A DNA stretch of 64,000 nucleotides from a virus (IMGVR_UViG_3300022743_000002:1-64000), one strand, 5' to 3'. Positions 3,531-43,628 are shown, numbered from the stretch's first letter. Numbers and translations are program-made. Notes: generated by a model from the sequence alone, not told the origin.

Positions 3531-4364
3531 TTAAATAACCAAATTGGATGTAACTGTTGAAATGGCCGGCACGTCGCCGCCGACCCGCACTGGCGCCTGG
3601 CATGAAAACGTGTTCATGACCTGATAAATTGGAGACGGGTACTCGCCATTGATGGCGTCAACGTCTTGCTGCGATAGGTTTGGCTTGATCCATCCGTAGC
3701 TATCGAACACCGACATATTCGCCACCACCAGCCGACGAATAGCTTTACGCAACTCGATCCGCTCGTCGCTATTCAGGGACCAGCCAATGATCATTAGTCG
3801 AACGCTAGCCAACCACCCCTCAGATTCTTCCCAGGAAAATCCGATGGCATCGAACTCGTCGCCGCTAATACTTTCCCCGAGCGCGCGATCGGCAGAGTCT
3901 TCCATTTCCAGGTGAATCGTCACCAGAGGAAAGCGAAGGCCTTGTTCAATGGAAGGAGGCGCCGTGTAAACCTGGATGTAGCCAAGCTCAGTTTGAAAAT
4001 GACCGCGATCACATTCAACGCGGAGTCCCGCTTCAATGCGCTCCCGCATATTCGACATGACGTCGGTTGTGTGATCCTGATAGGTCGCCGTCGGCGTGCC
4101 GCCAACAACATTCCCGGCCACCCAGGTTACATTGTCTGCGGTGTAATAGACTGCCCAGTAATAGAGCACGTCGTTGGCAAGGCCTGAAATATCGAGAAAG
4201 ACTACGTCGCTTCCCTGGTATGCCAGAAATGCGCCGGCATCATCGTGCCCGGAAAAGCTGCTCGTCGTTTTGCGCAACACCCGCCAGACAAGCGAGCCAG
4301 CAGGCGGGGCTACAAATACCCGGACTGCATTCCCCGCATACAAAGGCTGGACCGTTGTGATCAT
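3531..4364 (-). CDS. Putative neck/tail-terminator protein with N-terminal FN3-like domain
   Basis: First gene of the tail operon; start placed at ATG 4364, 7 nt after the late-promoter motif (alternative start 4370). Confidence 0.6.
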   Translation of the reverse strand: MITTVQPLYAGNAVRVFVAPPAGSLVWRVLRKTTSSFSGHDDAGAFLAYQGSDVVFLDISGLANDVLYYWAVYYTADNVTWVAGNVVGGTPTATYQDHTTDVMSNMRERIEAGLRVECDRGHFQTELGYIQVYTAPPSIEQGLRFPLVTIHLEMEDSADRALGESISGDEFDAIGFSWEESEGWLASVRLMIIGWSLNSDERIELRKAIRRLVVANMSVFDSYGWIKPNLSQQDVDAINGEYPSPIYQVMNTFSCQAPVRVGGDVPAISTVTSNLVI

Positions 4365-4371
4365 GGGCATG

Positions 4372-4387
4372 ATTTTGGCGTCACGAC
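4372..4387 (-). promoter_or_regulatory. Late-promoter motif for tail operon
   Basis: GTCGTGAC-GC-CAAAAT-N7-ATG. Confidence 0.75.
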
Positions 4388-4394
4388 ATGCGGG

Positions 4395-4408
4395 CGTGAC
4401 GCCATACT
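4395..4408 (+). promoter_or_regulatory. Late-promoter motif for the inverted neck gene
   Basis: CGTGAC-GC-CATACT-N6-ATG (ATG 4415). Confidence 0.75.
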
Positions 4409-4414
4409 CGCGGC

Positions 4415-5167
4415 ATGAGCACGATCAATTACCGCATCTCGCTAGACCTTGGCGCTCAAATGGAATTGAGTCGCGGCATCAAGGCAGAACTGTTCCCACT
4501 GGTAAATCAGGCTGTGAACGGGATCGCCCAGGCCACGGCGTCGCGCTGGATTGAGGCCGTGCAGCGCGCCAAGCTGTGGAGCGGAGAGAAGGACGCCTAC
4601 GCCAAGACGATCACGTACCGGATGATCGGTGATTTCAGTGCCGTCGTGGAGTCCGATTACCGCTACGCCCAGGATATAGAAACCGGGAGGCCACCGCGCG
4701 ACCTCAAGGCGATGCTGAACACCAGCATGAAGGTGCGGACGACCAACAAAGGAACGCGATACCTGATTATCCCATTCCGGCATAACGCCGACACCGTACC
4801 GGACCAGGCTCGCTCTATGAGCCTGAGCACAATTACCGGCCACGGTCGGCGCGTATCTGGCACCGGCGCCTTCAGCCTGTTGACGCGGGCGCCGGCAACC
4901 GTGCGGCAGCGCCAATATAACTGGGGCGATCGCCTCACGGGTCCCAACGTATCGAAGAACCAGCAAGGCATGGTGCGCATGAACACGGCGACAGGCTCAG
5001 GCAAAAAATCCAGCGCATACCTCACATTCAGGGTTATGAGCGAAAAGTCGCGGGGCTGGATAGTCCCGGCGCAACCAGGTCAGAACATCGCCCAGGGTGT
5101 GGCTCAGGAAATGCAACCTTTGGCGGACGAGTTTTTGGCCGAAGCCGTGAGGCGGACGCTCGGCTAA
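4415..5167 (+). CDS. Putative neck/tail-completion protein, inverted relative to the cluster
   Basis: 250 aa; YAQDIETG..P.DLK, YLIIPFRH and YLTFRVMSEKS.GW motifs typical of myovirus neck/morphogenesis proteins. Confidence 0.65.
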   Translation: MSTINYRISLDLGAQMELSRGIKAELFPLVNQAVNGIAQATASRWIEAVQRAKLWSGEKDAYAKTITYRMIGDFSAVVESDYRYAQDIETGRPPRDLKAMLNTSMKVRTTNKGTRYLIIPFRHNADTVPDQARSMSLSTITGHGRRVSGTGAFSLLTRAPATVRQRQYNWGDRLTGPNVSKNQQGMVRMNTATGSGKKSSAYLTFRVMSEKSRGWIVPAQPGQNIAQGVAQEMQPLADEFLAEAVRRTLG

Positions 5168-5805: not shown

Positions 5806-5806
5806 A

Positions 5807-6913: not shown

Positions 6914-6921
6914 GATTTCTC

Positions 6922-7458: not shown

Positions 7459-7461
7459 GCT

Positions 7462-9096: not shown

Positions 9097-9104
9097 GTCG
9101 GCTC

Positions 9105-15549: not shown

Positions 15550-16457
15550 GACTTACTCCGTTTGTTGAGACCATTTTTCAAATCGCGCATGAAGCGCTCC
15601 ACCCACTCAGCAGCCCTATCTGGCGCCATACTGAATTGCTTGGCGGCTTGCTCGACGAGCTCGCGGGCGCCAGGGTTCTTGCCAATGCCGCCGGTGCGCA
15701 TGCGCTCCGCCAGCTTGTTCCTAAAATCAAAATAGCTATGAATTGCGCCATCCAATGACTGCACGCGCATAGCCGAGCCGCCGGCAAGGGCGGCTGAATC
15801 TGTTCCGTATCCAGCTTCGAGTGCCTTTGCGAAGTCGAGGCCATCCGCCGACCAGGACTTCGCGAACGCGCCAAGGGGGATAGTTGCGCAGGTTCCAACG
15901 TGCTGATTTACCGGCGTTTTGGAAACGCCTATATTGTTCCAGCGGACCTTGCTCACGATCGCCTTGCGCATGCCGGTCTTAGCGTCGGCGACGACGGACT
16001 TTGCCAGGACGCTGCCGCCCACCGATGGATACCAGCGCTGGGGCGGGCTCACGTCAGTGATGGAAGACCAGAAGTCATTGGCGCGCTCAGCAGCCGGGCC
16101 GACGCCAGAATAAATCTCGGCCTTGACGAACGTCGTGCCACCTTTCTGGCGCACATCCAGCGGCCGACCGATTTCATACAGTTCGCAACCAGGTATGCCG
16201 GGCCTGCCTTGGGCTGCGTTTGGCTTACCAATCAGCGTGTAGTGATCAATGTCGATATTGCCGTAGCGTTTGAAATACTCCGCACTCTCAGCCAAGGCCT
16301 TCGCAGCGATCACCTCGTCCTGCTGATCAACCCCCTCGTTGCTGGCCTCAAAATAGACGATGCGTTGCCCGCCATCCATTTGGGGCGTTGCTTTGAGCAT
16401 CGAGCCGATACTCAGGAATTCAGGGATGCCAGCAAGGAGCTGATCGTCAGTTCTCAT
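15546..16457 (-). CDS. Prohead protease
   Basis: 303 aa; ASNEGVDQQDE, GNIDIDH, SVGG and TPVN motifs. Confidence 0.85.
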   Translation of the reverse strand: MRTDDQLLAGIPEFLSIGSMLKATPQMDGGQRIVYFEASNEGVDQQDEVIAAKALAESAEYFKRYGNIDIDHYTLIGKPNAAQGRPGIPGCELYEIGRPLDVRQKGGTTFVKAEIYSGVGPAAERANDFWSSITDVSPPQRWYPSVGGSVLAKSVVADAKTGMRKAIVSKVRWNNIGVSKTPVNQHVGTCATIPLGAFAKSWSADGLDFAKALEAGYGTDSAALAGGSAMRVQSLDGAIHSYFDFRNKLAERMRTGGIGKNPGARELVEQAAKQFSMAPDRAAEWVERFMRDLKNGLNKRSKS

Positions 16458-16463
16458 GCCGCA

Positions 16464-16479
16464 ATGATTGCGTCACGAC
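16464..16479 (-). promoter_or_regulatory. Late-promoter motif for protease-scaffold-capsid operon
   Basis: GTCGTGAC-GC-AATCAT-N6-ATG. Confidence 0.8.
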
Positions 16480-16504: not shown

Positions 16505-16527
16505 AAAAAAGGCCGCATAAAGCGACC
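16505..16527 (-). terminator. Terminator
   Basis: GGTCGC-TTTAT-GCGGCC followed by T6. Confidence 0.65.
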
Positions 16528-16549
16528 CTAACGCAATGAATTTACCTGC

Positions 16550-17032: not shown

Positions 17033-20000
17033 TCAAAAAAGAGAACCCGGTGCATCTTTTTCAGCGACCTGGCGCTGCTTGATGTAGTGAGCGACCCCCG
17101 TGTCATCCAGGCCCTCCATGGGCGACGTCATGAGCTCGCGCAATCCGTATTTGCGTTGCAACCGCTCACGGGCCTTGTGAACCTCGGGGTGATCGGCAAT
17201 GCCGTCGATCAATTCCACGTTGTTTTTTTGCCCAGTTCGGAAAATTCGCCCGTTGCGCTGCGCATGAGTCATGGCGGTCTGCGGAGTGTCGTGCTGATAC
17301 AACCACTCGCCGCGCTGAATGTTCATACCGGTGGCGCCGGCATCGCTGGCGACAAGAATGTCAGCCTGGGCTTCACCTTGCTCCGGGTTGAACATGAGCC
17401 GCTTGCGCTCTTTTTCCTTGCCGCTATCAGATCCCGTGATGGTGACGACACGGTGCCCCTCTTTTTGCAGTCGCTCAGTGATCATTCGGACTGCTTCGCG
17501 ATTGTGGGCGAACACCACGCCGGGCTTGCCCTTACGATCGGCGGCCTTCTTCACGAGGTCGTCAATCAGCGGATTGTCGGGGTGCGTGTTGATAACGCGC
17601 TGCACGGCTGACGATCGCATGATGCCTAGCGACTGCTGAAGCCCCTTCGCCACCTCATCGTGATCAGCCTCGGCGACGCCATCGAACGATGCCGGGCTGA
17701 TGGCCTTCATGGCGGCAACATCGACCTTACCTTCCATGCGGGCAATGCGAGCGCTGGTGAAATGCTTGTCCAGTTCGGCCAGCGCTTGCTGCTGCCCGCC
17801 GGATAGAGCTACCTTGGATTCTTTGCGGTCAGCCGTGACGTCGGGGTCGATCTTGCTGGGGTAGACGTAACGCGCCATCTCGCGCTTGAGGGCATCCTTG
17901 GACGCCAATGTATCGGCGCCATAGCGACGCATAAAGGCGCCGCGGTCGTTGTAACGAGCCGGATCCATCTTGCGCATGAGGTCATACACTTCGCTGGCAT
18001 CATTCTTGACCGGATCACCTGACGCCGTGACGTAGTAGGGCGTATGGGCTGACAGAGCGTCGACGACGTTGGCCAGGCCGGAATTCTCCTTGCCTTGCCG
18101 GTTCAGTGTGTACTGGCTTTCGTCGGTAGTCAGATAGTCGAAGTTGATGCCTTCGCGCTCCATGATGCCACCCATCCAGTCCTTGCGCTCGGCGTCGGTC
18201 ATAGAGTTAAGGCGGTCCGCCATCTCGGACTCGCTGATACCGGAGTGCGTGGCGCCCAGGTGCATCATGTCGTCTCGGAACGACTGGTGTGTCATCACGC
18301 AGAAATGGTGGTCCGGGTTCTTGTAGGCCTTGATGCGCTCATCACGGCTGGCGCCAGGCTCAATGTGCCAATTGAATTTCCCGGGCTCCAGGTAGCGCAG
18401 AGCCTCGCCTGAGAACTGGCCCTGCACGATCGAAGGCACAAGAAACATTCCGCGCTTTGCCTTTCCTTGCTGGTGCAGGTGCGTAAAGGAAGCCAGCTGC
18501 AATAGTGACTTGCCGGATCCAGTGCCGAAGGCCGCGACGACGCGCTTATTTGCGTCGACCATCTTCACCAGGCGCTGACGGGCCGCATTCTTGCCGCCGC
18601 TCATCGTCGGAGCCCATAGTTTGGTGGGTTGCCCTGGCTTAAAGTTTTTCCCAACGACACCCATCATGCCGGCAATCTGCCTCTCAGCAACATGGCCAAG
18701 GCTGTGTCGCTCGTCGCCCTTTAGGTCTGCTTGCGTAGCCTCTTTTTCGACCGGGGCGTCATCGCTGCCAAAGAATCCCATCTGCGCCTGATTGAATGCC
18801 TCGTCCTGATCGCGCGCGGCATCCAGCTTGTCCGACACGCTTCCGGCTGCGTAGCGCCCCTGGGACCGCTCGCGCAGGCTGTCAACAAGCTCCCGCTCGC
18901 GTGCCTGCCGCTCCTCGCGCGCCGCGGGGTCGGTGGCGTCGAGGTGGTTCAGGTTGTTGCGGATGACGGACCGCCCCAGCTTGAGGGGCTTACCCGGGTT
19001 CAGCTTGTTGTGGTTGTCCGCGAATGCCTTGCCGACGTTGGAGCGGATCAGATCCTGAATGGCCTCGTAAGCCTTCTCGTGCCCGTGCATGGCCTCAACG
19101 TATTTCGGCCAGTCAAGACCGGCAGCGTTGGCTTTTGCCGCGGCTTCATTGCGCTGGGTGCTCCAGTCGCTCCACTCTGGATTGACGGTGGTGTCACCGA
19201 ACATGTCGGTGGTTTCTTTTTCGGGCTCGTTGGCTTCCAGCCGCTCAACTTCAGCGCGCAGTGCGCCCTGCTCGGGGCTTTCCTTCGCCACGTTGCGGTA
19301 AAAGTGCTCGCGCAGTGTACGCTGGTCCTGGCTGGTCAGTTCGCCAATCTGCTTGAATGCGGCTACGCCATCGGGGTGCTCGGACAGCGCCCGGTGCAGG
19401 GCATCAACCGACGTCTGGTCGACGCTGAAGGACTGCCGGTTCAAGGTGCTGCGCTCGCCACCATAACGGTTTTGCACGAACACGTCCGCATAGCCGTCAA
19501 ATGCGCCGGCCAGCGCCTCGGAGCGGCGCTGCTTGCCTTTGGCGTCCTTGAGCGGCGCCACGGCATCGAGCGCGGCGCGGTACTGCTCGGCCTTGTCGAA
19601 CCCGACTTTTTCAAAGAATGCCGCGCTCTGGATATCCGCCACGATATCGCCGGGCGCGTCACCGTCAGCTGCACGACCGCCGATGTAGTCGCGCAGGGAC
19701 TGCTCCAGGTCATCGCCTGGCGTGAACGGCTCCGCCAGTCGCGGTGCCACCCCGGGCTTGACGTCCATCGCCAGATCCGGGCGGTTAGCTACGCCAAGCG
19801 GAAGCCAGCCGTCCTCGTCCTCGTCGCCGCGGATGATGGACAGGTTGCGTTGCACCTGGGCGACGTCGTCGCGGGCGATCGGCTTTGCAAGGCGGTCCAT
19901 GCCGGCGGCGTTGATGGTCAGGAACGTGTCTCCGGCGACGGTGTCAAGCGTGTAGTCGCCGCGCTGCAGGCCGATAGCGCGCACCCGCTGGATTGCAGAC

Positions 20001-21589: not shown

Positions 21590-21595
21590 CCGCCC

Positions 21596-21611
21596 ATAGT
21601 AGGGTCACGAC
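21596..21611 (-). promoter_or_regulatory. Late-promoter motif
   Basis: GTCGTGAC-CC-TACTAT-N6-ATG. Confidence 0.8.
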
Positions 21612-21613: not shown

Positions 21614-21943
21614 CTACAGCCCGCCGGCGTCAGGATCCACCAACCGGAACGTGCCGCCGCCAGTCGGGTCCGCGACTTCGGACCCACCAAGGTTAAACGA
21701 CGCATTGGTGCGGTATTCCTCGATAGCGGCCGCAAGCGCAGCCTGCAGGTCCGCATGGGCCGGCATGCGCTCGAATACGGACTGATCCATGTGGTCACCA
21801 AGCAGGAACAGGTTGTCGCGGGTGTAGAACTTCTTCAGAACCTGCTTTACCAGGTACCAGTGCGAGCCAAAATTGACATACCGGCTAGGGTCGTCCTGGA
21901 GCAGCTGCAGCGTGCTGGCGGCGAAGGTTTTGGGGTCGATCAT
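21614..21943 (-). CDS. Hypothetical protein coupled to the DarB-like gene
   Basis: 109 aa; ATGA overlap with the upstream stop, AAGGAGG RBS. Confidence 0.75.
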   Translation of the reverse strand: MIDPKTFAASTLQLLQDDPSRYVNFGSHWYLVKQVLKKFYTRDNLFLLGDHMDQSVFERMPAHADLQAALAAAIEEYRTNASFNLGGSEVADPTGGGTFRLVDPDAGGL

Positions 21944-28548: not shown

Positions 28549-28554
28549 CCCCAG

Positions 28555-28570
28555 AGGGTAGCGTCACGAT
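28555..28570 (-). promoter_or_regulatory. Late-promoter motif
   Basis: ATCGTGAC-GC-TACCCT-N6-ATG. Confidence 0.8.
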
Positions 28571-28572
28571 GC

Positions 28573-30903
28573 TCAGCGCGGCGCCAGGAATACTACAGGC
28601 ATAGACTTTGTAATGTCTGGATTAGAGCCATCGAACTCGCCATTGTTGCCGATAGCCGATTTGATCTGCGTCGGATCAAAAACGACGTACTCAGCGGGGT
28701 AGTCACCGTTCTGGATGTGCCCGTAGCTCAAAATTACACCGTCGTGGCCCTTGGCGGCCAGTTCCTGCGTCCACTTCGCGGCAGCTTCATTGTCACCGCG
28801 GCGCTCGGCGAGCATCAGCCGCTGCTTGTCTTCCAGTGTGGCCTGATACGGGTTCTTTAGGCTCAGGTAGACAGGCATCACGTTGGGTGACGCGCCAGCC
28901 TTGAGGTTGGTGTAGCTGTTGGAGATTTCGGTGTCGTTGGTGAAGTAGAAGCCCTGACCGAGCCAGCCGTTGTCTTTTTTGTTGGCGTGGCCGTGCTTGA
29001 ACTCAGCGAAGTCATCAGCGGTTCCGTGATAAACGATCAACGGCTTACCATTCCCGTCAACCACTTTACTGCCTCGAAACCAGGTCTTGAACTTCGCGGT
29101 TTCGGTTGGATGCTGGAGCGCGGCCGGCTTCGGGGCCAGTCCAGCAGCCACAGCCTGCAACGCCTTCCTGGGGTCTACAAACTCCAATTTGGTGCCCATG
29201 TCGGTGTGACCGACGCGGATCAGGCTCTTGATGTGCGGGCGCACGGCGTGTGACGTGATGCCGAACACCTCGGCGGCCGCTGGAATGAACCACTTGAGCC
29301 CAGATGAGCCAGCTTTCAGGCCTAGCCGATTTAGGTCCATATCCGTGACTTCGCCGCCGGCCATCAACCGATCGCGCATGGCGGCCAGCGCGGTGGCGCG
29401 ATCGGCCTTGTTTTTGGCGGAACTCTCGCGGTTCGATAGCCACTGCTTGCCCTGCGCCGCAGCATCCTCCGGCTTCGCGTGGTACGCGCTCAAAATATCT
29501 TTGCCCGGGAGCTCGACCGCGTAGTGGCCAGCGATTAGCCCTTTGCCGCGCGACCAGGTTGTGCCCTCGGGGAAATCGGACAGCAGGTGGTCGTGCTCGT
29601 GCTCGCCCGCGGGCTCGGTGTGCTGGAGCTCGTCGGCGAACATATCTGGCGTGTGAGTTACCGCGTCCTTGCCGTTCAGCGGGCTCGGCCCCATCGGTTT
29701 GCCGCTCATGGGGCCGCCAAATAGGCTCATTTGCCCGGGCGTAGCATGCGGGCGCGCAGATCGACCCTGATACCCAGCGACGTTCACCAGACGACCGCCA
29801 CGCAGGTACGGGCCAACATGGGATTTGAAGAACAAGACCATGCTCTTGGCGATGGTGGCGCCGCCGGCCGTACCTCGGCTTTCCACGCCGTTGTCGTCGT
29901 TGAACTTCTTGGCGACCTTGATCAACTCCATCGCCGGCATGCCGATCTTGATGATGGGTAGCTGCTTGCCTTCGAGCGCAGCGACGGCCCAGCGGTGGTG
30001 ACCGTCGAGCACGCGATTGTCGGACGACACCAGAATGCGGGTTTTGGCGTCGTACCGGCCCGCCCGCGTCTCGTCCGTCAGGTAGTCCATATTGGCGGCG
30101 TTGTAGGTGCCCTGGGTCGGCTTCAGTTCGGACGGGTTCACCGTGGCCTCGGTCACGGAAACACCTGACTCACGCAGCCCGTTCAAGAACTTTTCTTTCA
30201 CGCCGCTCGGAACCTGGGGCATGTCATCCCGGCGGATGCCAAGCGACGGCTTGAACATTTCCGCGTACTGCTGGTGCCGCTGGCGCTTGTCTTCGTGGGC
30301 CTGCACCACAGTTCCATCGGAGCGGGTGTAGGTATCGACGTGGGCCTTCAGCAGCAGCGCCTTGATCATGGCAGGCTTGTCGATCGTGGCGCGCACCTTG
30401 GAAACGAACTCGGCCACCGGCATGGCGGTGATGGGGCCCAGGAAACGCGGGTCGGTGTAGTTGGCCAGAAATGCCTGCTTGGCGTCTTCCTCGCTATCGA
30501 ACCCGGCCATGGCCTTGTCTTCATCGTAGCGGGTCCAGTCGCCATAGGTGTTCTGGTGCACCACGTAGACCATGGGCGCGTCCGGGTTCGGGCCCATGTA
30601 GATATCGACCGGGTCACCATCCACGCCCATGGATCCGACCACCTCGCCGTAGTCGTAGGACATGCGGATTTCCCAGGCCTCGCCGGACCGGTTCACGCCG
30701 CGGCGCACGGATCCCGCCGGATTCTCAATTGCCAGCGTCAGTCCCTGCCATTCGATGCGTGGCTTCTTGTAGGCGCCCTCGCCGGCCTGGGCGGCACTGG
30801 GCTCGCCGGGGTTTCGGCGAACTTCGCCTTCCCCCAGGTCGGCAGGCTTGGCGGCGCCGCTCATTGCCTGTGTGACGGGGTGGGATTTGAGGAAAACGAT
30901 CAC
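28573..30903 (-). CDS. Polyvalent protein: inorganic pyrophosphatase-like, ParB-like and ADP-ribosyltransferase (ART-PolyVal-like) domains
   Basis: 776 aa; DYG..DGDPVD..DEDK; LKPTQ..VLDGHHRW; VYHGT..GFYFT..LKNP..HDGVI..EYVVFDPTQIKS. Confidence 0.85.
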   Translation of the reverse strand: MIVFLKSHPVTQAMSGAAKPADLGEGEVRRNPGEPSAAQAGEGAYKKPRIEWQGLTLAIENPAGSVRRGVNRSGEAWEIRMSYDYGEVVGSMGVDGDPVDIYMGPNPDAPMVYVVHQNTYGDWTRYDEDKAMAGFDSEEDAKQAFLANYTDPRFLGPITAMPVAEFVSKVRATIDKPAMIKALLLKAHVDTYTRSDGTVVQAHEDKRQRHQQYAEMFKPSLGIRRDDMPQVPSGVKEKFLNGLRESGVSVTEATVNPSELKPTQGTYNAANMDYLTDETRAGRYDAKTRILVSSDNRVLDGHHRWAVAALEGKQLPIIKIGMPAMELIKVAKKFNDDNGVESRGTAGGATIAKSMVLFFKSHVGPYLRGGRLVNVAGYQGRSARPHATPGQMSLFGGPMSGKPMGPSPLNGKDAVTHTPDMFADELQHTEPAGEHEHDHLLSDFPEGTTWSRGKGLIAGHYAVELPGKDILSAYHAKPEDAAAQGKQWLSNRESSAKNKADRATALAAMRDRLMAGGEVTDMDLNRLGLKAGSSGLKWFIPAAAEVFGITSHAVRPHIKSLIRVGHTDMGTKLEFVDPRKALQAVAAGLAPKPAALQHPTETAKFKTWFRGSKVVDGNGKPLIVYHGTADDFAEFKHGHANKKDNGWLGQGFYFTNDTEISNSYTNLKAGASPNVMPVYLSLKNPYQATLEDKQRLMLAERRGDNEAAAKWTQELAAKGHDGVILSYGHIQNGDYPAEYVVFDPTQIKSAIGNNGEFDGSNPDITKSMPVVFLAPR

Positions 30904-32060
30904 TTTGGTTCCTTGCGCGGCATGGCCGCCAGCTTGTCACGCATCCATTGCCCGAACTCCACATCGTCACCTGGCCGGTCCTGAATCGTCGGAACCCAGC
31001 GCCCACGGCAATGCGGGTGCACCAGGCCGACTGGCACCTGCCACATCTCCTCGGGCTCGCGCTCCTTGAACACGGACCCCACGCGCTTGCGTGGGCTGGC
31101 GCTTCGCCCAACGTTGGTTTTGCCCGGCCAAATCATGGTCTCCGGGTCCTTGTCCTCGCGGGCGGCGTCCACGACTTCCATGACGCGGCCGTCGATTTTG
31201 CGACAGAACGCACAGGCGTTTTTGTACTGCTCGACACGCTTGACCTTGGTGCCCATGGGTAGAGACGACACGTAGCCGGCGGTCTGTGCTTCGCCGGCCT
31301 CGGTCACGGCGATCCGCCGCCAGTCGCGGTTCAGCGTGCCGAACTGGTCGAGGAGCTTGGTCTCCAGACTCGACGACGGTGCCGGCAGTCCGAGCTCGCG
31401 CTCCGTGACGTGCTCGGCAATGACGCCACGCATGCGGTGCCGGACGTCATTGGCGATGTTGCGGACATTCTCGGCACAGCGGGTTTCAGCGTGAGCCATG
31501 GTAGCGCGCTGTGCGACGGTGCCGCCAAACGCCGCAATGGCCTCAGCGGCCGTGCTCGGCATGGCCGCCAGCAGCACGTCGGCCTGCTTGGCGTCGGCGG
31601 CCTCCATGTTGGCCTGCACGCGCCCCATGAGGCTGGCACGTGTCGACAACCAGTCGGCCTCGGTGCGCATGTCGTCTGCAGGCAGGTAGCGCTGCACCGT
31701 CGCGTCGACGGCAAGCATGTGGTCTTCCAGCGTCCAATCGGACGGCGGGAGGTGTTCGAGGTAGATATGGACCAGAGAGAGCTCGCTTTGCGTCCATCGC
31801 TCCATCATGCCGCCAGGGCGAATGATGCGCTCGCCGGGCTTGTGTCGGACGCCGGCGGTCCAGGCCTGAATCTCGGTGCGCACGGCGTCAAGGCGATCGA
31901 GACCGCGCTGCGTGAAAAGCTCGACCAGGCGACGCAGCAACGGGCTATCCATTGGCGCCCAGATGCCGTCGTCGTGGTCATGCGTGGACTTGCACAGGAA
32001 CTCCAGAGCGTCGTTTGTGACGCGCTCACCAAGTTCAATTAAATCGACGAACAAAGACAT
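30900..32060 (-). CDS. MuF-like head morphogenesis protein
   Basis: 386 aa; RIAVTE, ACAFC and HPHCRG motifs. Confidence 0.8.
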   Translation of the reverse strand: MSLFVDLIELGERVTNDALEFLCKSTHDHDDGIWAPMDSPLLRRLVELFTQRGLDRLDAVRTEIQAWTAGVRHKPGERIIRPGGMMERWTQSELSLVHIYLEHLPPSDWTLEDHMLAVDATVQRYLPADDMRTEADWLSTRASLMGRVQANMEAADAKQADVLLAAMPSTAAEAIAAFGGTVAQRATMAHAETRCAENVRNIANDVRHRMRGVIAEHVTERELGLPAPSSSLETKLLDQFGTLNRDWRRIAVTEAGEAQTAGYVSSLPMGTKVKRVEQYKNACAFCRKIDGRVMEVVDAAREDKDPETMIWPGKTNVGRSASPRKRVGSVFKEREPEEMWQVPVGLVHPHCRGRWVPTIQDRPGDDVEFGQWMRDKLAAMPRKEPK

Positions 32061-32066
32061 GCTGGC

Positions 32067-32082
32067 AGTATGCGATCACGAC
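32067..32082 (-). promoter_or_regulatory. Late-promoter motif for MuF
   Basis: GTCGTGAT-CG-CATACT-N6-ATG. Confidence 0.8.
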
Positions 32083-32252
32083 GAAAAGCCGGAGCGGTTT
32101 CCAGCCCCGGCGATCCGGCGCGACCCTGGCACGGCGCGTAAACGCCGGAAAGGAACCGACCTCCAACCCTCAATGGACGTCGGCGCCATGTCGCGCTGCG
32201 GCCTTTATATCCCGAATGAACCGCAAACGGTCACGCTCAAGCCAACACTAAC
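32083..32252 (-). ncRNA. Candidate structured ncRNA B (~170 nt, late promoter)
   Basis: Own copy of the promoter motif with no ATG at +1; nested stems; ends in a GC hairpin plus T4. Confidence 0.55.
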
Positions 32253-32258
32253 AATGGC

Positions 32259-32274
32259 AGTGTGCAGTCACGAC
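32259..32274 (-). promoter_or_regulatory. Late-promoter motif with no downstream start codon
   Basis: GTCGTGAC-TG-CACACT-N6-G. Confidence 0.7.
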
Positions 32275-32300
32275 AAAAAAACCCGGCACAAGGCCGGGTT
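32275..32300 (-). terminator. Rho-independent terminator
   Basis: AACCCGGC-CTTGT-GCCGGGTT followed by a T run. Confidence 0.85.
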
Positions 32301-32305
32301 AAAAG

Positions 32306-32570
32306 CTCCGACCCAGGGAGGAAAGGCCGGCCACTTGCGTGGGGGTTGATGGCGGCCGAAGGTGATCACCCTGCTATCGACCGGGAACCCCCAGCCGTTC
32401 GGCATCTTCGCCATCAAGAATGAGACCTTACCACTGGCTGCATCCGCGTTTAAGTAGATACACCATAATCTCATACTTGATGACCCTGCAAGCAGGCATC
32501 AAGGGCACCTAACGGGTACCAGTCGACGTGATTAAGTGCCGTCGCACGGAGTTGTCTACTCAGGTCCGAA
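32306..32570 (-). ncRNA. Candidate structured ncRNA A (~265 nt)
   Basis: Multiple 8-12 bp stems and an imperfect 5'/3' closing stem, directly followed by a terminator; no credible ORF. Confidence 0.55.
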
Positions 32571-32592
32571 AACTAATTCTAATCACAAATAA

Positions 32593-33189
32593 CTATATTT
32601 GTGCAATGCCGCGCAAATATATTTCATCAAAAATAGCATCGAGTACGGGGTGACGCTGGCTCATGGCCGTTACCACCTGGCGCGCATCGCTGTAATACTT
32701 GCGCTTTCTGTCTGCGCCCCAAGCCGGTGGCATAACCAGCAGGTCCCGCAAGTTAGCAGTCTTGTCTGCCACCTTCACGGCGGCCGCCCTGGGGCTCATG
32801 GTTTGCGCGTGGGCTACCTGCATCGCCAGCTTGTCTTCGGGCTTCACGTCTTCGTTCGTGAGCTCCGCCACGGCGTCGGCAACGTCATGACCAAATTCAG
32901 CCACCAGGTTTTCGTGGCTGACGCCGCAGTCCTCAATGGTGTCGTGCAGCAGAGCCGTGATCAGCGTGGCGTCATCGGTGACGCCAGCCTCATCGTGCAG
33001 GATTCGGGCGACTGCGCGCGGGTGTTCGATGTAGGGAACCTTGGGCGCGCCAGGCTGGCCCTTGCGGTACTGGCCGGTGTGGGCCCGCTCCGCGAACTTG
33101 TCGGCGCGCCTGACGTGAGGGGAAACGTAAACGCCATTGCGGCGGGTATGGCCCGCCACATGAACCGTTGATTTGAACAAGAGGATCAC
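32593..33189 (-). CDS. HD-domain (p)ppGpp hydrolase-like protein (SAH/Mesh1 family)
   Basis: AHTGQYRK, PYIEHP, ALLHDTIED, VKVADKTANLRD; N-terminal ILLFK|S tag. Confidence 0.88.
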   Translation of the reverse strand: MILLFKSTVHVAGHTRRNGVYVSPHVRRADKFAERAHTGQYRKGQPGAPKVPYIEHPRAVARILHDEAGVTDDATLITALLHDTIEDCGVSHENLVAEFGHDVADAVAELTNEDVKPEDKLAMQVAHAQTMSPRAAAVKVADKTANLRDLLVMPPAWGADRKRKYYSDARQVVTAMSQRHPVLDAIFDEIYLRGIAQI

Positions 33190-34980: not shown

Positions 34981-36722
34981 GATTGAATTCTGAACACCGG
35001 CAGGCCAAACGACTTGGCTATGTCCTGCTGATCATCTCCGGGCCTCTCCGTAGCCCCAGCATCATCGGGCGCCCCGAAGTCTTGCCCGCCCTGATCGTCA
35101 CCAAAATCCTGATCGCCGCCGCCGTCATCGCCGTCATCGGTCGACTGCCCAGGCTCAGCGCCAGGCTGGCCGTAGTCCTCTTGCTGCGGCATTGCCTCTT
35201 GTTGCCAGGCGCCAACCAGCGAGGGATTCAATGGAGCGTCACCCCACTTACCGTCGGCCTTGTCGACGCCGTCCTCGGCTCGGATCTCGTTGACGGTGCG
35301 CGTCATTTTTTTGCGCTCCCAGATCGTCTTTTCGTCTTCCTCGTCCAGGCCGGTGAACTGGAATTCGTACTTGTCACTGAACTCGCCAATGACGTACTCG
35401 CTCAGCGTGGACTCGAAATAGCTCAGCAGGGGGCGCAGGCCCTTGTCTTTGCTGTTGACGATCTTCTCCTCGGTGTCGTCTCCGCTCAGCGATGACGTTC
35501 CGGACGTGAAGCTCTCAAAATTGATTTCCTCGGGCGCAATGCCGTAGATCGCGCAGATGATGGATGACAAGAACGTCATCCACTTGGCGAACATGATTTC
35601 GTTGGCGGCGTTACCGAATTCCGTGAAGTCGGCTTTCGACTCCTGATCCTTGGACACCATGACGGGCAGCGTCCAGGCGTTATTGACGCCCTTGACCATG
35701 CCGTTCCAGTAGCGCTTAAAGGCGGCAACATCCTCGTCGCTGTAGTTTCCGTACAGGTTCAGCATGCCCTTGGGTATGGCGTTGCTGTCGAAAAATTTGG
35801 TGTTGTAGGTGAAGGCGTTCAGAAAGCCCGTCACCACGCGGATAAGCAGTTCCGTCTCGGACAGTCCGTAGCCGCCAGCAAGCACGTCGGTGCGTGGGTT
35901 GCGCGGCACATACACCAGGTCGTCATAGGTGTAGGCGCTGCGGATCTGGCCTTGCACGACCTGGAGGGCGAAAATCTCGTCTTCGCCTTGGTAGCCGTCT
36001 TCGCTGCACAACCGAATGGTGGCTCCGTCGACGGCGTACATGCCGTCCAGGCCGAGCGACTTGTCGCGCTTCCACTCGGTCTCAATCGGTGCGCTGTCCA
36101 TGGTGAGGCTGTCGCGCACCAGCTTCATCATGAAGTTTTGGAAGTTGTCGCGCTTCAGGCGCAGGCGCTGGCGGGGCTTGGTCTCCCAGCCGCTGTTGGT
36201 CACGAATGACTCCAGCAGCTTAATGGTGGCCTTTTCGTTTTCGTCGATGTTCTCCAGCTTTTCCTTGCTGGCGATCCTGAAACCCGACCCCTTGCCACCC
36301 TTCTGCGGCCGGCAAAACCTGGCCACCTGGCGCTGGCGCGTCATTATGACGGCGTTCAAAATCGGCGTTTGGTCCACCATGGCGCGCATGGCATCAAACG
36401 TGAATTGGCCGGGTCGCTCGAACCAGTCGCCGTTGATGTTGATCTGCAGGTCGTCCAGCCAGACCGACTGCATGCCGGGCTTCTTGTCTTTGATGGCATT
36501 CGACGGGAACGGGATGACGTTCTGCTTTTGCAGCGACTTCGCCATGGCCTGATCGTCCAGGTCACGGTTGATGTAGTCAATGATGGGCTGAATGTTCGCC
36601 GCCGGTATCAGGTCCGACAACGCCTTGGGCATGCTGGATTTTTGAAGCTCCGCCATGGCTTCAGTCCGCTCGTCGGCGGGCGCACGTGGATCAGCGAGTA
36701 TGGCGCGGGCAGCATCAGTCAT
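34977..36722 (-). CDS. Portal protein
   Basis: 581 aa; DGATIRL, GYGLSETE, PKGML, ICAIYGIAPEEIN, KGLRPLL and TVNEIRA portal motifs. Confidence 0.92.
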   Translation of the reverse strand: MTDAARAILADPRAPADERTEAMAELQKSSMPKALSDLIPAANIQPIIDYINRDLDDQAMAKSLQKQNVIPFPSNAIKDKKPGMQSVWLDDLQININGDWFERPGQFTFDAMRAMVDQTPILNAVIMTRQRQVARFCRPQKGGKGSGFRIASKEKLENIDENEKATIKLLESFVTNSGWETKPRQRLRLKRDNFQNFMMKLVRDSLTMDSAPIETEWKRDKSLGLDGMYAVDGATIRLCSEDGYQGEDEIFALQVVQGQIRSAYTYDDLVYVPRNPRTDVLAGGYGLSETELLIRVVTGFLNAFTYNTKFFDSNAIPKGMLNLYGNYSDEDVAAFKRYWNGMVKGVNNAWTLPVMVSKDQESKADFTEFGNAANEIMFAKWMTFLSSIICAIYGIAPEEINFESFTSGTSSLSGDDTEEKIVNSKDKGLRPLLSYFESTLSEYVIGEFSDKYEFQFTGLDEEDEKTIWERKKMTRTVNEIRAEDGVDKADGKWGDAPLNPSLVGAWQQEAMPQQEDYGQPGAEPGQSTDDGDDGGGDQDFGDDQGGQDFGAPDDAGATERPGDDQQDIAKSFGLPVFRIQS

Positions 36723-36728
36723 GCCTGA

Positions 36729-36744
36729 AGGGTAACGTCACGAC
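36729..36744 (-). promoter_or_regulatory. Late-promoter motif for portal operon
   Basis: GTCGTGAC-GT-TACCCT-N6-ATG. Confidence 0.8.
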
Positions 36745-36762
36745 ATTTTTTATCCCGGAGTG

Positions 36763-36792
36763 TTGCTTATTTTTGAGTAATGGCATTAGAAT
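36763..36792 (+). promoter_or_regulatory. Candidate sigma70 promoter for the plus-strand cassette
   Basis: TTGCTT-N18-TAGAAT upstream of an AAGGAG RBS. Confidence 0.5.
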
Positions 36793-36816
36793 TCGTCAAC
36801 ATTCACAAGGAGTTTT

Positions 36817-39072: not shown

Positions 39073-39116
39073 ATTACGCCGCCGGGTGCGTTACCCGGAT
39101 TTTCTAGGAGACTCCA

Positions 39117-39392: not shown

Positions 39393-39486
39393 TTTCGCAC
39401 CCTCCCACATCAAATTTACATGCCTGGCTTGCAAAAAGCTCAAGACCGGTATATTCGCCCTCCCCGAAGCGACGCGGGGAGGGGAA

Positions 39487-40332
39487 ATGGGCTCGTCAAT
39501 TCAATACAAACCAGGCACAAAGAGACGCGACGCCAGGCTTGGTGATGTTCATGTGCACGTATTTGAAGACGCCATCGGAATAGATTCAATCGTCGTACCA
39601 GAGCACTCCATTTTTATTCTGGCTCGCGGCGTTTCGATGGTCGACATTTTAGAATCCGGTGAGCTACCAAGGCACACATACGGAGCTGGGTCCATCAGGT
39701 TTCTCCCGGCTGGCACACACCTATCGTCGGTCGATGTTTCTGCGCCCTACACAGAGACGATGATCCGCGTTCCGGAAAGCGCGTTCCGCCAGGCCGCCCG
39801 CGACAAAATTTGCTACAACTCACTGCAGTGGAGCTTTGTGAGGGCGCCAGCTGAGAAGACGTTCGGCGTCGCCCAAACGCTAGCCAATGTAGCCATGGCT
39901 GAGAATCCATCCCCGCTGTTTGTAGACGCCGTAATCAATGCGCTTTGCATTGGCGTCATGTGCACCAACATGGACCGGACCTATGAGGCCACGCGCCAAG
40001 TTCCGGGCGGGCTGTCGCCAGAGCGGCAGCGTCGCGTCGTCGAATTCATTGAGAAAAACCTATCGGAGACAATCACGCTATCCGACGTGGCTCATGTCGC
40101 CGCGCTGAGCCCGTTCCATTTCAACCGGGCATTCCGCGCATCGATGGGCACAACGCCATCGAGGTATGTCATGTCCATGCGGGCGTTAAGAGCCAAGCGG
40201 ATGCTGTGCGACCGCACAATGCAAATCGCCTGCGTAGCGATGGAGTGCGGATTCAGCAACCAAAGCCATTTCACCACGGCCTTTAAGAAGGCAACCGGGA
40301 TGACGCCGGCAGAGTGGCGCCGCAATAACTGA
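39487..40332 (+). CDS. AraC-family transcriptional regulator
   Basis: C-terminal double HTH: LSPFHFNRAF..G..P and CGFSNQSHFTTAFKKATGMTP. Confidence 0.92.
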   Translation: MGSSIQYKPGTKRRDARLGDVHVHVFEDAIGIDSIVVPEHSIFILARGVSMVDILESGELPRHTYGAGSIRFLPAGTHLSSVDVSAPYTETMIRVPESAFRQAARDKICYNSLQWSFVRAPAEKTFGVAQTLANVAMAENPSPLFVDAVINALCIGVMCTNMDRTYEATRQVPGGLSPERQRRVVEFIEKNLSETITLSDVAHVAALSPFHFNRAFRASMGTTPSRYVMSMRALRAKRMLCDRTMQIACVAMECGFSNQSHFTTAFKKATGMTPAEWRRNN

Positions 40333-40420
40333 GTCACAAGCTGTTTTATATGTGACGCCAAGTTCGCGCCACCATTAGCTTTTCGCGTGTTTTCCGTTTT
40401 CTCGTGTGATAGCCGGGCGC

Positions 40421-40789
40421 TTATCGGGCGCCAGTTACGCGCTTTTCACCGTCGTATTTTGCCTTTGCGTCCTTCAGCGGCTGCTGGCGCTTCTTTAGCT
40501 CCATGTGCGCATAGTGCACCTCGTCGATGTACTGTCCGCCCTTTTTGTCGTTGCCCATTGCGTAGGCGTGCTTGGCCGCCTCTTTGGCATCCTTGATCAC
40601 GTAATGGAGCTGGTCTTCGCTGTAGGTCGCAAATTTGCCCTGGGTCCGGCTGTGCCAGTTTTCCTCGTCGCGCCAGTCTTTTTTTGGTTTGGCGGCCTGC
40701 CGCTTGTCGTCATGCGCACCCACAACGGAGCCGTCCTTGCGCGTGAACGTATCAATGTGCGACTTGAAAAATAGGGCGAGTGCTTTCAT
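40421..40789 (-). CDS. 122 aa basic protein carrying the shared tag
   Basis: MKALALFFK|SHIDTFTRKDGSVVGAH; has its own late promoter. Confidence 0.8.
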   Translation of the reverse strand: MKALALFFKSHIDTFTRKDGSVVGAHDDKRQAAKPKKDWRDEENWHSRTQGKFATYSEDQLHYVIKDAKEAAKHAYAMGNDKKGGQYIDEVHYAHMELKKRQQPLKDAKAKYDGEKRVTGAR

Positions 40790-40795
40790 TCCCGC

Positions 40796-40811
40796 ATTTT
40801 GCGATCACGAC
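40796..40811 (-). promoter_or_regulatory. Late-promoter motif overlapping the TerL stop codon
   Basis: GTCGTGAT-CG-CAAAAT-N6-ATG. Confidence 0.8.
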
Positions 40812-42925
40812 CTACGCGCCACAAAAAGCACGCAGCTGACGTCGCGCACGCCCACCTGAAGCTGGCGGTCCTCGCACATGCCGGTATCAGCATTGCGTGC
40901 CGTGCACCGCCCGCATACGCCATCCGGCAGGGTTTCCAGCATGGTTGTGACCGCCGTCGGCAGTCCGTGCATGTTCATGCTGGCCGCTTTGTCTTTGAGC
41001 TCTTGCTGCGCGCTACCCCCGTCCGGAATAATGAAGGTCGCGGTTCCGTGCGACCGGGACCAGGCGACGTCGCAAAGCATGTTGGCATAGCTAAAGTGCG
41101 GGTCGATCCCGACCTTCTTCACGCTGCGCTTGTACTGGTTCGTCTCGTCGTCCTTCTCAGCCACCAACGCCGTTTTGGTGAAGTGGTGAAATGCCCGCGG
41201 CAACACCGCCATGGTCTGGGTCTTGCCCTTCTCGATCACGTCCTGCACCAGGCCTTGCGGATCCGGGAACAGGCACAGCTGGCCAGTCAGGCGCGCCATA
41301 CTGACCTGCATGCACTTGTACTGGTCCATGCGCAGCGTGTAGCGGTCGCGCTCATTTTCATCGGTCCGGCGATCGCTTACGTCTAACCTGGGTGCGTCGC
41401 CCCACAGGACCATACCCTCCTTGACCTGACCGAAGCTGTCGCAAATAAACACCCGACCCTTGTGGCGATTTGCGAAGCGCTTGGCGTCGTTGTAGTTCGG
41501 GTTGATTTCGACAACGCACACCGCGACGCCAAAAGCGTCCATGAGCTCGTCGCAGCGTCCAAACGGGTCAGCGTCGTAGATTTCCTCTACGTGCACCACA
41601 GCCTGGCGCCCGTCCGGCAGTCGCTCCTTGATAACGGCGACGTTGAAGTTGCCCATTTGGTCGATACCCATGAAGCAACTGCGACCGCGGGTCTTCCACT
41701 GCACCCCGGCGGCCTTGCCGGCCTCCACGCACGCCGCCAAGTGCTCCAGGGTGACTGGCACCTGACTGGGGTCGACATAGGGCTTGCCGCGCTTGCGATT
41801 GAAAAAGTTCTTCATATCGCTGGCGGTCTGGTACGCCGTGATGATTTCATCGGCGCTGATCGTTGGGCTCAGGTACTGCGGGAAGTGGATCGACCGGATC
41901 CGCAGCCGGCGCTCCTTGAGTGGCACGCCCACCTCGGGCCCGCGATCACGTTCCGGGTGCTCGGCTCGCCACTCGCCGGCCTGGGTGTCGTCAATCCAGT
42001 GACCGTTGGGGCAGACGTAGCGGTATATTTCCCGCTGCTTGTCCCACTTAATGCAGTCCGGGAAATAGTCGTCCAGGGGCTTGCTGGTGCCGCACGTCGG
42101 GCATGTCGTGTGAAACTGGTGCTTGGTGCCCTTCTTGTACCAAAAGTCGATATCGGCGTCGGGCCAGTTTGCGGTAGACCCCATGAGCATGAAGCGGACC
42201 GTGCTGGCGCTGACGCGCTCGTAGGTCTTCTCGATTTGCTCCAGCGTCATCTCCTGCACCTCGTCGAAGCTCAGGACGTCCATGGGAATGGACTCCGTCG
42301 TCGCGCGGCCGCTGGTCCAGCTGAAGATGAAAAGCGCCTGGTCGATGCGGCGCCGGTTGACGTTGCCCTCGCCCTGCTTGCGGCCGCTGCCGTCTGGTGC
42401 GTCCTGGGTCATGAGCTCGTGCACGCTGGGCACGCTGCGCACGATCGGCATGAAGCGCTCGCTCGATTTCAGGCCGGCCAGATTCATGTCGGGCAGGAAC
42501 ATGCCGACGATGCAGGGACCGAACTTTATGCCGAGGTAGATCGTCGCCAGCATCTCCATGACGGTGAAGCCAACCTGGGCGCACTTCATGAGCACCAGGA
42601 CGTACCGGTAGGCTTCCTCGCGCGTGCTTGGTATCTGGTCGTAGATCCACGCCATAGCCGGGCGGTCGTCGAGGGTGAAGCGCTTGCCGTCCACCTTGAG
42701 GCCGTCGCTGCCGTCGGGCTTTGTGCCGCGGCCCAAGTGCTCGCACCACTCGCGGAATGACTGGCCGTCCGGGATGACTTCCTTTTCGTTGATGCGAAAC
42801 CCGGTCTTGGCTTCCAGCTGGGCAATCGCTTGCGCCAGCCCACCATTGAAGTCGGGCATGCGGCGACGGTTGCCGCTCCCGGCGCCGGTAGGCTTGTAGG
42901 CGCGGCCGTTAGCTGCGAAGGCCAT
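40805..42925 (-). CDS. Terminase large subunit (GpA-like)
   Basis: MKCAQVGFT, SSERFMP, LSFDEV, CPTCG Zn finger, MGIDQ nuclease motif, DPHFSYA. Confidence 0.88.
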   Translation of the reverse strand: MAFAANGRAYKPTGAGSGNRRRMPDFNGGLAQAIAQLEAKTGFRINEKEVIPDGQSFREWCEHLGRGTKPDGSDGLKVDGKRFTLDDRPAMAWIYDQIPSTREEAYRYVLVLMKCAQVGFTVMEMLATIYLGIKFGPCIVGMFLPDMNLAGLKSSERFMPIVRSVPSVHELMTQDAPDGSGRKQGEGNVNRRRIDQALFIFSWTSGRATTESIPMDVLSFDEVQEMTLEQIEKTYERVSASTVRFMLMGSTANWPDADIDFWYKKGTKHQFHTTCPTCGTSKPLDDYFPDCIKWDKQREIYRYVCPNGHWIDDTQAGEWRAEHPERDRGPEVGVPLKERRLRIRSIHFPQYLSPTISADEIITAYQTASDMKNFFNRKRGKPYVDPSQVPVTLEHLAACVEAGKAAGVQWKTRGRSCFMGIDQMGNFNVAVIKERLPDGRQAVVHVEEIYDADPFGRCDELMDAFGVAVCVVEINPNYNDAKRFANRHKGRVFICDSFGQVKEGMVLWGDAPRLDVSDRRTDENERDRYTLRMDQYKCMQVSMARLTGQLCLFPDPQGLVQDVIEKGKTQTMAVLPRAFHHFTKTALVAEKDDETNQYKRSVKKVGIDPHFSYANMLCDVAWSRSHGTATFIIPDGGSAQQELKDKAASMNMHGLPTAVTTMLETLPDGVCGRCTARNADTGMCEDRQLQVGVRDVSCVLFVARRS

Positions 42926-42928
42926 GCG

Positions 42929-43606
42929 TTAGAGCCTCATGGACATGGTCATGCCGGTGCGACTGTTGAGCTCAGCCAGGCGCGTCATGATGCGCCGCTG
43001 GCACTCCGGCGACTCCTGGCCAATCTCCTCGATGATGGTCTCGTAGAAGTTTTGCATGGTGCGCAGGTCCCACACCTCCTGAACAGCCTTGATGGCGGTC
43101 TCCAGCAGGTCGGCGCGCCGCACGATCGACTTGTCGAAGGCGGCCGGGTTTTTGATCCGCTCGCCAGTGATCACGCCGTCGCTGTCCGTCACCTGGGTAA
43201 TAGCGAAGGCTCGCAGCATACTTGCGTCGCGGTACAGGCTGTGAATTTCGGCCACAAAGTCCAGCGTTGCCAAGCCGGTCTCTCCGTTTTTGGCAATGTA
43301 GGCCGGACTGGGTGCCGCCGGCAGGTGTTTGGTAATGCTCTCGGTGCCGTTCTCCTCGGACTCCAGCGCGCGATCGTCCTTGCGGATTTTCTTGACCTTT
43401 TGCACCAGCTTCGCCTTGGCGTTGATCAGCTGTGGCTTGGGTACGTCGGCGGCTTTGGCCTCACGGATTAGGCGCCACTTGGTGGCAATGCCAATCTCCG
43501 GATGCGTTTCCAGGATCGGCGTCCAATTGGTGGATCCGACGGTAGCCAGGTGCCTTGCCACGGCTTCCGTGAACGATGCTTTGATGCGGGGGTCGAGTGC
43601 AGCCAT
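42929..43606 (-). CDS. Putative terminase small subunit
   Basis: 225 aa helical protein with an HTH-like N-terminus, immediately upstream of TerL. Confidence 0.65.
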   Translation of the reverse strand: MAALDPRIKASFTEAVARHLATVGSTNWTPILETHPEIGIATKWRLIREAKAADVPKPQLINAKAKLVQKVKKIRKDDRALESEENGTESITKHLPAAPSPAYIAKNGETGLATLDFVAEIHSLYRDASMLRAFAITQVTDSDGVITGERIKNPAAFDKSIVRRADLLETAIKAVQEVWDLRTMQNFYETIIEEIGQESPECQRRIMTRLAELNSRTGMTMSMRL

Positions 43607-43612
43607 GATCGA

Positions 43613-43628
43613 ATGATAGCGTCACGAT
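43613..43628 (-). promoter_or_regulatory. Late-promoter motif for terminase operon
   Basis: ATCGTGAC-GC-TATCAT-N6-ATG. Confidence 0.8.

Follow-up and report, generated by a model that had tools for sequence, protein, structure and literature searches.

The late promoters of phage P1 combine a −10 hexamer with a short conserved inverted-repeat box, which is bound by Lpa (with the host SspA) and replaces the −35 element (PMC10695390; P1 record annotation). In the Thermus phage Lalka27a the late promoters lack a −35 element and have a special −10, 5′ ends were mapped six bp downstream, and most transcripts are leaderless; two such promoters stand back-to-back in a divergent intergenic region, and a phage factor was inferred (bioRxiv 10.64898/2026.04.20.719267). 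The lambda cI messenger RNA (mRNA) made from PRM and other proteobacterial leaderless mRNAs have their 5′ end on the A of an AUG, which is required, and carry no Shine-Dalgarno (SD) sequence (PMC10491246). Here we describe a repeated 16-bp element, GTCGTGAY-NN-nAnnnT, in the viral DNA IMGVR_UViG_3300022743_000002:1-64000. This stretch, hereafter the window, makes up the first 64 kb of one 87,750-bp contig with a GC content of 59% (an IMG/VR-type record, ~95% complete). Judged from its sequence and placement, the element is very probably a late promoter, and at most of its copies the promoter is probably leaderless.

The phage (88 kb) is a member of a temperate, ~90-kb myovirus family. Its closest relative in gene order is Bordetella phage PHB04; the others are the Pseudomonas phages Dolphis, Jeremy and Touem01, Aeromonas phage ST4, Yersinia phage fHe-Yen8-01, E. 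coli phage ECML-606-1, Enterobacter phage phiT5282EW, Morganella phage Mecenats66 and at least 44 IMG/VR contigs. The literature searched holds no description of the motif promoter: the box strings gave no relevant paper and the Mecenats66 paper is silent on promoters. It yielded no transcriptome of a relative either.

An exact search of the window for CGTGAY-N3-A-N3-T gave 13 matches, against 3.7 ± 1.95 in shuffled sequences (largest value 9). Ten of them had been listed in a first-pass annotation, and their coordinates and strands all proved correct. The spacing that it claimed also holds: an ATG follows after six nucleotides (nt) at eight copies (4395 on the plus strand, and 16464, 21596, 28555, 32067, 36729, 40796 and 43613), after seven at one, and is missing at one (32259). 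The motif-linked ATG of the listed copies opens in each case the longest open reading frame (ORF). Three copies had been missed, at 46547, 54325 and 23192, all on the minus strand. Three strong copies (71538, 78899 and 82998) and a weaker one (78394) lie beyond the window, and the whole phage has 15 strong copies. The copies of the window, with the genes (lengths in amino acids, aa) and, for some, the score in a position weight matrix (PWM), are the following.

4362-4385, minus strand: motif (4372-4385), 7-nt spacer and ATG (4362-4364), heading the adaptor, sheath and tube (tail) unit; PWM 24.2.
4395-4417, plus strand: motif, 6 nt and the ATG of a 250-aa gene; divergent partner of the 4372-4385 copy, 9 nt apart.
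16455-16477, minus strand: motif, 6 nt and the ATG of the prohead protease, heading the head unit (protease, scaffold-position gene, major capsid).
21587-21609, minus strand: motif, 6 nt and the ATG of a 1518-aa helicase (cargo).
28546-28568, minus strand: motif, 6 nt and the ATG of a 2202-aa DarB-like methylase-helicase (cargo).
32058-32080, minus strand: motif, 6 nt and the ATG of a MuF-like 386-aa gene, followed by a 776-aa polyvalent protein.
32259-32272, minus strand: motif without ATG, then ~170 nt of non-coding structured sequence ending in the terminator 32088-32111.
36720-36742, minus strand: motif, 6 nt and the ATG of the portal; the same layout precedes the portal in nearly all of 38 related loci.
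40787-40809, minus strand: motif, 6 nt and the ATG of a 122-aa gene; a terminator-like site (40828-40849) lies upstream.
43604-43626, minus strand: motif, 6 nt and the ATG of a 225-aa gene (small terminase by position), then the large terminase.
46538-46560, minus strand: motif, 6 nt and the ATG of a 174-aa phage metallopeptidase gene; PWM 19.6, missed earlier.
54325-54338, minus strand: weaker motif within the dATP/dGTP diphosphohydrolase gene, from which an in-frame ATG (codon 102) is 7 nt away; PWM 16.3.

At the 4372 copy an earlier in-frame ATG occurs 1 nt past the motif, but homologues begin at the second methionine. The copy at 54325-54338 may be an internal promoter, mark an internal start or be due to chance. 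The remaining match, 23192 on the minus strand, is probably a chance occurrence: it lacks the GT, scores 9.5 in the PWM and is located inside a gene.

A PWM scan of the whole genome gave 18 matches of at least 12 bits, against 2.3 in shuffled sequences. The top 14 matches are all intergenic and oriented toward the next gene; they include 71538 and 78899, which were absent from the matrix training set. With a rebuilt matrix 15 matches reach 15 bits, and all but one are intergenic. The earlier remark that early genes have no copy in front of them is borne out by the 48-71 kb region of replication, recombination and integrase genes, in which no strong copy is found. Motif copies are confined to the late and cargo units (terminase, portal, head, tail, cargo).

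We propose that GTCGTGAY-NN-nAnnnT defines the late-promoter class of this myovirus family. Its second half would be a minimal −10 element that keeps only A−11 and T−7, the bases captured by σ70-type factors. Its first half, the imperfect palindrome GTC-GT-GAC located in the spacer region, would stand in for the −35 element and be read by a phage-encoded specificity factor acting with the host RNA polymerase. Transcription would start 7 nt past T−7, at an ATG that has a C before it and whose A serves as +1; in most late units translation of the first gene would thus use a leaderless mRNA and that of the downstream genes ordinary SD sites. In the relatives from Enterobacterales the same promoter would have acquired an SD-bearing leader of 15-42 nt. 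To this explanation taken as a whole (late-promoter class, phage factor with host polymerase, leaderless first genes) we assign a probability of about 0.72.

The strongest transcription terminators found between 15 and 35 kb bear directly on the function of the element.

16509-16529, minus strand: terminator upstream of the protease copy 16477.
32088-32111, minus strand: intrinsic terminator of 8 pairs, 7 of them GC, whose T-tail runs into the 32080 motif.
32280-32300, minus strand: intrinsic terminator directly upstream of the 32272 copy.

These three strongest minus-strand terminator-like sites of the interval all sit just upstream of motif copies, two abutting the copies at 32080 and 32272 and one placed ~30 nt before 16477; the site upstream of the 40809 copy is a fourth, weaker one. 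Because terminators stand just upstream, transcription must restart at the motif copies. In the divergent pair 4372/4395 only 44 nt separate the two longest-ORF ATGs, and the same pair is present in Dolphis, PHB04, ECML-606-1 and Mecenats66. Packing is tight elsewhere, too. The stop codon of the large terminase is the TGA inside the CGTGAT box at 40805-40809 (minus strand), the box starts 4 nt after the upstream stop codon at 28568 and 21609, and several promoters fit wholly inside a 24-nt stop-to-start gap.

A signal acting in RNA, either a translational operator or an endonuclease processing site 5′ of the AUG with transcription starting elsewhere, would suit the fact that about half of the copies are exactly phased to the ATG. 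We nevertheless consider it highly improbable, as copies occur just downstream of terminators (two abutting them), the divergent pair would need transcripts starting inside the opposite gene, and A-N3-T with C−1/A+1 is a promoter signature at the DNA level. Moreover, one copy has no ORF at all, and 15-42 nt separate motif and ATG in enteric relatives. This uncoupling from the ATG in the E. coli and Yersinia relatives indicates that the motif is not itself a translation signal.

The early operons are organized differently, with canonical −35/−10 promoters and SD leaders. One of these promoters lies next to the portal copy.

36763-36792, plus strand: canonical σ70 promoter TTGCTT-N18-TAGAAT; the leader after it has an AGGAG SD (36763-36816).

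It serves the rightward operon divergent from the portal (RdgC, HU-like, AraC-like), at which many relatives keep a matching TTGCGC...ATAATT arrangement.

The anatomy of the element was examined in an alignment of 101 unique family copies, chosen solely on the core pattern and the ATG. The consensus is G(−22)TCGTGAY(−15)-NN-nA(−11)nnnT(−7)-N6-A(+1)TG, with C at −1 and no −35. G−22 and T−21 are each conserved in 87% of the copies although they lie outside the search pattern. C predominates at −15 (81%) and −1 (72%) and G at −14 (66%); A or C occupies −9 and −8 (98% for −8). The alignment holds no information upstream of −24, that is, no −35 and no UP element. The box GTC-GT-GAC forms an imperfect palindrome centred at −18.5 and is separated from the hexamer by 2 nt. 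The A at hexamer position 2 and the T at position 6 are found in all 15 strong copies of the genome. When the A of the ATG is taken as +1, these invariant bases land exactly at −11 and −7. A−11 and T−7 are the two bases flipped out by factors of the σ70 family, and C−1/A+1 is the preferred start dinucleotide. The A of the ATG, which the first-pass annotation had proposed as +1, thus falls where the geometry predicts a start site, and we infer +1 from this. The promoter look that it had ascribed to a −10-like hexamer with an adjacent specific box and no −35 likewise finds indirect support in the geometry, the terminators, the divergent pair, the conservation of the spacing throughout the family and the exclusive use of ATG. 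An arrangement with CGTGAC as a −35 element and a −10 inside the ORF was ruled out, codons 2-3 showing no −10 pattern.

The canonical A−11 and T−7 are also what would be expected if the σ70 holoenzyme alone read the 16 bp as an unusual extended −10, lateness then coming, for instance, from copy number, replication or the release of a repressor. Phages of Bordetella, Pseudomonas, Aeromonas, Yersinia and E. coli share an identical box, and σ70 is highly conserved among these hosts; the searches identified no activator. However, the TG of the box is at −18/−17 and not at the extended −10 position (−15/−14), and hexamers like CACACT, TACCCT and CAAAAT are very weak. In addition, a temperate phage, as its integrase indicates this one to be, must silence ~15 virion promoters in lysogens. 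CGTGAC is not known to be a σ70 element. We regard recognition by the host enzyme alone as improbable.

A phage σ-like factor of the T4 gp55 type, or a novel RNA polymerase, could instead read the element directly, with no activator working through σ70. The element is contiguous, highly specific and without a −35, like T4 late promoters and those of single-subunit polymerases, and many small early proteins have no family. Against this, no Sigma70_r2 or r4 signal (PF04542, PF08281) was detected in six frames, a search that a very divergent σ could escape. No RNA polymerase gene was found either, all ORFs longer than 480 aa being assigned as helicases, methylases, primase or structural proteins. 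The chances of this alternative seem slim to us. A specificity factor that acts with the host polymerase remains our preferred reader of the box, and two genes come into consideration for it.

47531-48055, minus strand: orphan protein of 174 aa, its four CxxC pairs invariant, encoded at the head of the leftward early/middle operon.
39487-40332, plus strand: AraC-family regulator, a weaker candidate.

The 174-aa zinc protein is present in all ten cultured relatives (58-91% identical among the close ones) and is restricted to this phage family. It is the only protein of unknown function, neither structural nor replicative, that all relatives have in common. Its gene is always the first of a long operon directed toward the terminase, beside an AT-rich regulatory gap. 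It shows no σ-like fold in a structure model, though that model has a mean predicted local distance difference test score (pLDDT) of 70 only. We name it, tentatively, as the best candidate for reading the box. The AraC-like regulator, with homologues in PHB04, Dolphis, Jeremy, Touem01 and ST4, was rejected as a universal reader because it is absent from ECML-606-1, fHe-Yen8-01 and Mecenats66, all of which have the box. When P1 Lpa was compared by tblastn with this genome and with five relatives, no homologue was found (best E value 0.57).

The conclusion that most first genes are leaderless was drawn from the spacing between motif and start codon, for which 149 unique GTCGTGAY-N3-A-N3-T copies were collected from ~45 genomes and contigs. 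An ORF-opening ATG follows after 6 nt in 65 copies, after 7 nt in 15, and after 5 and 8 nt in one each; 6-7 nt are thus found between hexamer and AUG in 80 of the 149 unique family copies and in 11 of the 15 copies of this genome. None of the 82 copies with a start 5-8 nt past the hexamer uses GTG or TTG, the initiation codons of about one in five SD-led genes of the genome (a count from a crude gene caller). As the 65 six-nt copies have 53 different spacers and GTG and TTG are lacking, it is the length of the spacer and not its sequence that is under selection, and AUG is obligatory; this would be as expected for leaderless translation. At the portal loci box, hexamer, 6-nt gap and ATG are fixed amid freely diverging flanks.

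The earlier statement that there is no room for an SD in front of the motif-led genes is correct, nor is there any sign of one: the mean free energy of the duplex with the anti-SD is −1.0 kcal/mol for these genes versus −4.0 kcal/mol for the rest. The GenBank annotations of PHB04 and Dolphis independently take motif-linked ATGs as starts. The GenBank starts of the ST4 portal (68444-70060) and of Dolphis gp15 and gp25 lie downstream of the motif-linked ATG, which suggests that the proteins have longer N-termini, with putative starts at ~70150 in ST4 and at 14321 and 23688 in Dolphis.

The first-pass annotation had further suggested that the leaderless form favours late translation when SD-led initiation of the host is impaired. 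This idea is not supported. Only the first cistron of each unit would be leaderless; the major capsid, the sheath, the large terminase and most internal genes carry clear SDs. Relatives infecting Enterobacterales, furthermore, run the same promoters with SD-bearing leaders. Since internal virion genes use SDs, a shutdown of SD-led initiation would not spare virion production. The leaderless form is explained at least as well by the compact packing of internal promoters.

The proportion of copies with an ATG at 6-7 nt varies within the family.

This phage (host not identified): 11 of 15 strong copies.
PHB04 (Bordetella): 9 of 15 strong copies.
Touem01 (P. syringae): 7 of 12 strong copies.
Dolphis (P. 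putida): 6 of 12 strong copies.
ST4 (Aeromonas): 3 of 9 strong copies.
ECML-606-1 (E. coli): 1 of 11 strong copies.
fHe-Yen8-01 (Yersinia): 1 of 8 strong copies.
Mecenats66 (Morganella): 0 of 2 copies, both weak.

In the E. coli and Yersinia relatives the box is kept, and 15-42-nt leaders with SD sites are found between motif and ATG. Orthologous promoters, such as those of portal and protease, switch between predicted leaderless and leadered forms. The switch could be a host effect or reflect shared ancestry. At the protease promoter of ECML-606-1 (34489) and fHe-Yen8-01 (3728) an ATG 6 nt past the motif is kept and followed by TTT TGA, a two-codon mini-ORF that may be a vestige of the leaderless form; the real, SD-led start is located 28 nt past the motif. 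A further observation in Dolphis is a MazE/MazF pair (76195-76744), which has no homologue in this genome by the searches run. MazF has been linked, controversially, to the making of leaderless mRNAs.

In leadered relatives a hairpin with a U-run starts right after the −10-like hexamer, its 3′ arm carrying the SD (GAGG/GGGG). Such hairpins are found at ECML-606-1 7557, fHe-Yen8-01 30139, ST4 3895 and Dolphis 28083, and in Mecenats66 upstream of the holin gene, ORF50 and terL. The 5′ arm spans about −6 to +1, so that transcripts from the motif promoter would lack it. Read-through transcripts would terminate at the hairpin and hide the SD, while promoter-initiated ones would not.

The frequent occurrence of these hairpins directly after the hexamer, together with a box that adjoins the −10, recalls the loading of a Q-like antiterminator, in which a zinc-finger protein would join the polymerase at the box and enable terminator read-through; the ~170-aa zinc protein, encoded upstream of the late region, would be its candidate. 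Several facts make this scenario very remote. There are ~15 promoters and not one, the relatives' hairpin would lack its 5′ arm in transcripts from the motif promoter, and in this genome the terminators precede the motifs instead of following them. The zinc protein, finally, has no match to a Q family in Pfam or PHROG, and fold searches gave no significant match.

Some observations do weigh against a factor-dependent, leaderless late promoter as proposed here. Four of the 15 copies of the genome (32272, 71538, 78899 and 78394) are not leaderless. Efficient leaderless translation is not the norm in Beta- and Gammaproteobacteria, and expression levels are uncertain. From −22 to −15 the box occupies an unusual position for an activator. 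The zinc protein found no match in Pfam, PHROGs, PDB sequence, Foldseek, VIA-align or Atlas, and its structure model is mediocre (pLDDT 70, predicted TM-score 0.38). A bolder version, which we hold to be possible but doubtful, is that the family-wide multi-CxxC zinc protein retargets the host polymerase to a bipartite −22/−10 promoter without −35. With the promoter kept, the first cistrons would also have switched form, being leaderless in Bordetella, Pseudomonas and uncultured high-GC hosts and SD-led in Enterobacterales. If true, it would offer a natural experiment on the conditions under which leaderless translation works in Proteobacteria.

The copy without ATG at 32272 precedes a region (32083-32258, minus strand) of ~170 nt that is GC-rich, strongly folding (minimum free energy about −80 kcal/mol) and devoid of ORFs, and that ends in the terminator 32088-32111. 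Four related contigs (L003, L006, L008 and L013) match it at ~73-76% identity over stretches of 108-174 nt, and it may be a late small RNA. A second non-coding stretch (32290-32620, minus strand) lies between the HD-hydrolase gene and the 32272 promoter; it ends in the terminator 32280-32300 and has no Rfam match. Rfam and transfer RNA scans of the window were empty.

The genome is ~92% coding. Its virion genes encode the large terminase, portal, prohead protease, major capsid, sheath and baseplate proteins, and it also encodes replication and recombination functions and an integrase. The cargo genes, listed with motif promoters of their own, are the following.

17033-21589, minus strand: 1518-aa helicase.
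21940-28548, minus strand: 2202-aa DarB-like methylase/SNF2 helicase.
28573-30903, minus strand: 776-aa polyvalent protein with inorganic pyrophosphatase and ART-PolyVal domains, following the MuF-like 386-aa gene.

This set is P1-like, and PHB04 annotates an Ulx-like gene beside its DarB homologue. The only prophage relative found in genomes is on one contig of a metagenome-assembled genome, from which the host was not identified.

The motif provides a precise, testable transcription map for a widespread, barely studied family (PHB04, Dolphis, Touem01, ST4, fHe-Yen8-01, ECML-606-1 and many metagenomic contigs) and corrects misplaced start codons, among them those of Dolphis gp15 and gp25 and of the ST4 portal. 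The 16-bp element is a predicted compact, orthogonal promoter, with a candidate reader protein. Virion and cargo genes would be expressed systematically from leaderless mRNAs in phages of Proteobacteria, where such mRNAs are considered rare, and the contrast between leaderless and SD-led forms runs inside one family, apparently by host clade.

Among known systems, T4 late promoters (gp55, gp33 and the gp45 clamp) resemble the element as a class that relies on the −10 region only for late genes; their TATAAATA element is absent here, no gp55-like σ was detected, and T4 late mRNAs are SD-led. Promoters of single-subunit phage RNA polymerases differ in that no phage polymerase gene was found here, the large ORFs being all assigned otherwise. 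Under lambda Q-type control a single late promoter carries a Q-binding element and has a terminator downstream of it, compared to ~15 promoters in this phage. Leaderless lambda cI and its like concern single regulatory genes, whereas here the first cistron of ~10 late units in many phages would be involved. For the leaderless aspect the match is Lalka27a, with which Thermus phage YS40 and its leaderless transcripts can be grouped; the large terminases are distantly related (~24% identity). Lalka27a uses TAGGGT and a C at −25 where this family has GTCGTGAY-NN-nAnnnT, and its host is a Thermus, in which leaderless mRNAs are common, while the present hosts are Proteobacteria and the leaderless habit appears lost in the enteric branch.

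By analogy of architecture, P1 appears to be the closest system. Both are temperate ~90-kb myoviruses with many dispersed late promoters (11 in P1, ~15 here), and DarB-like proteins occur in both, PHB04 having an Ulx-like protein as well. The P1 promoter LPpac, ATGTGACTT-N4-TACCCT, has the GTGAC core in common with the motif, and two copies of this phage carry the identical hexamer. The differences reside in the box, AAGTnACTT near −22 in P1 versus GTCGTGAY centred at −18.5, and in the gap between box and hexamer, annotated as 4-9 nt in P1 (LPpac 4, LPhot 9) versus 2 nt. P1 late mRNAs are leadered (~29 nt with an SD at pacA), while those of the phage described here are predicted to be mostly leaderless.

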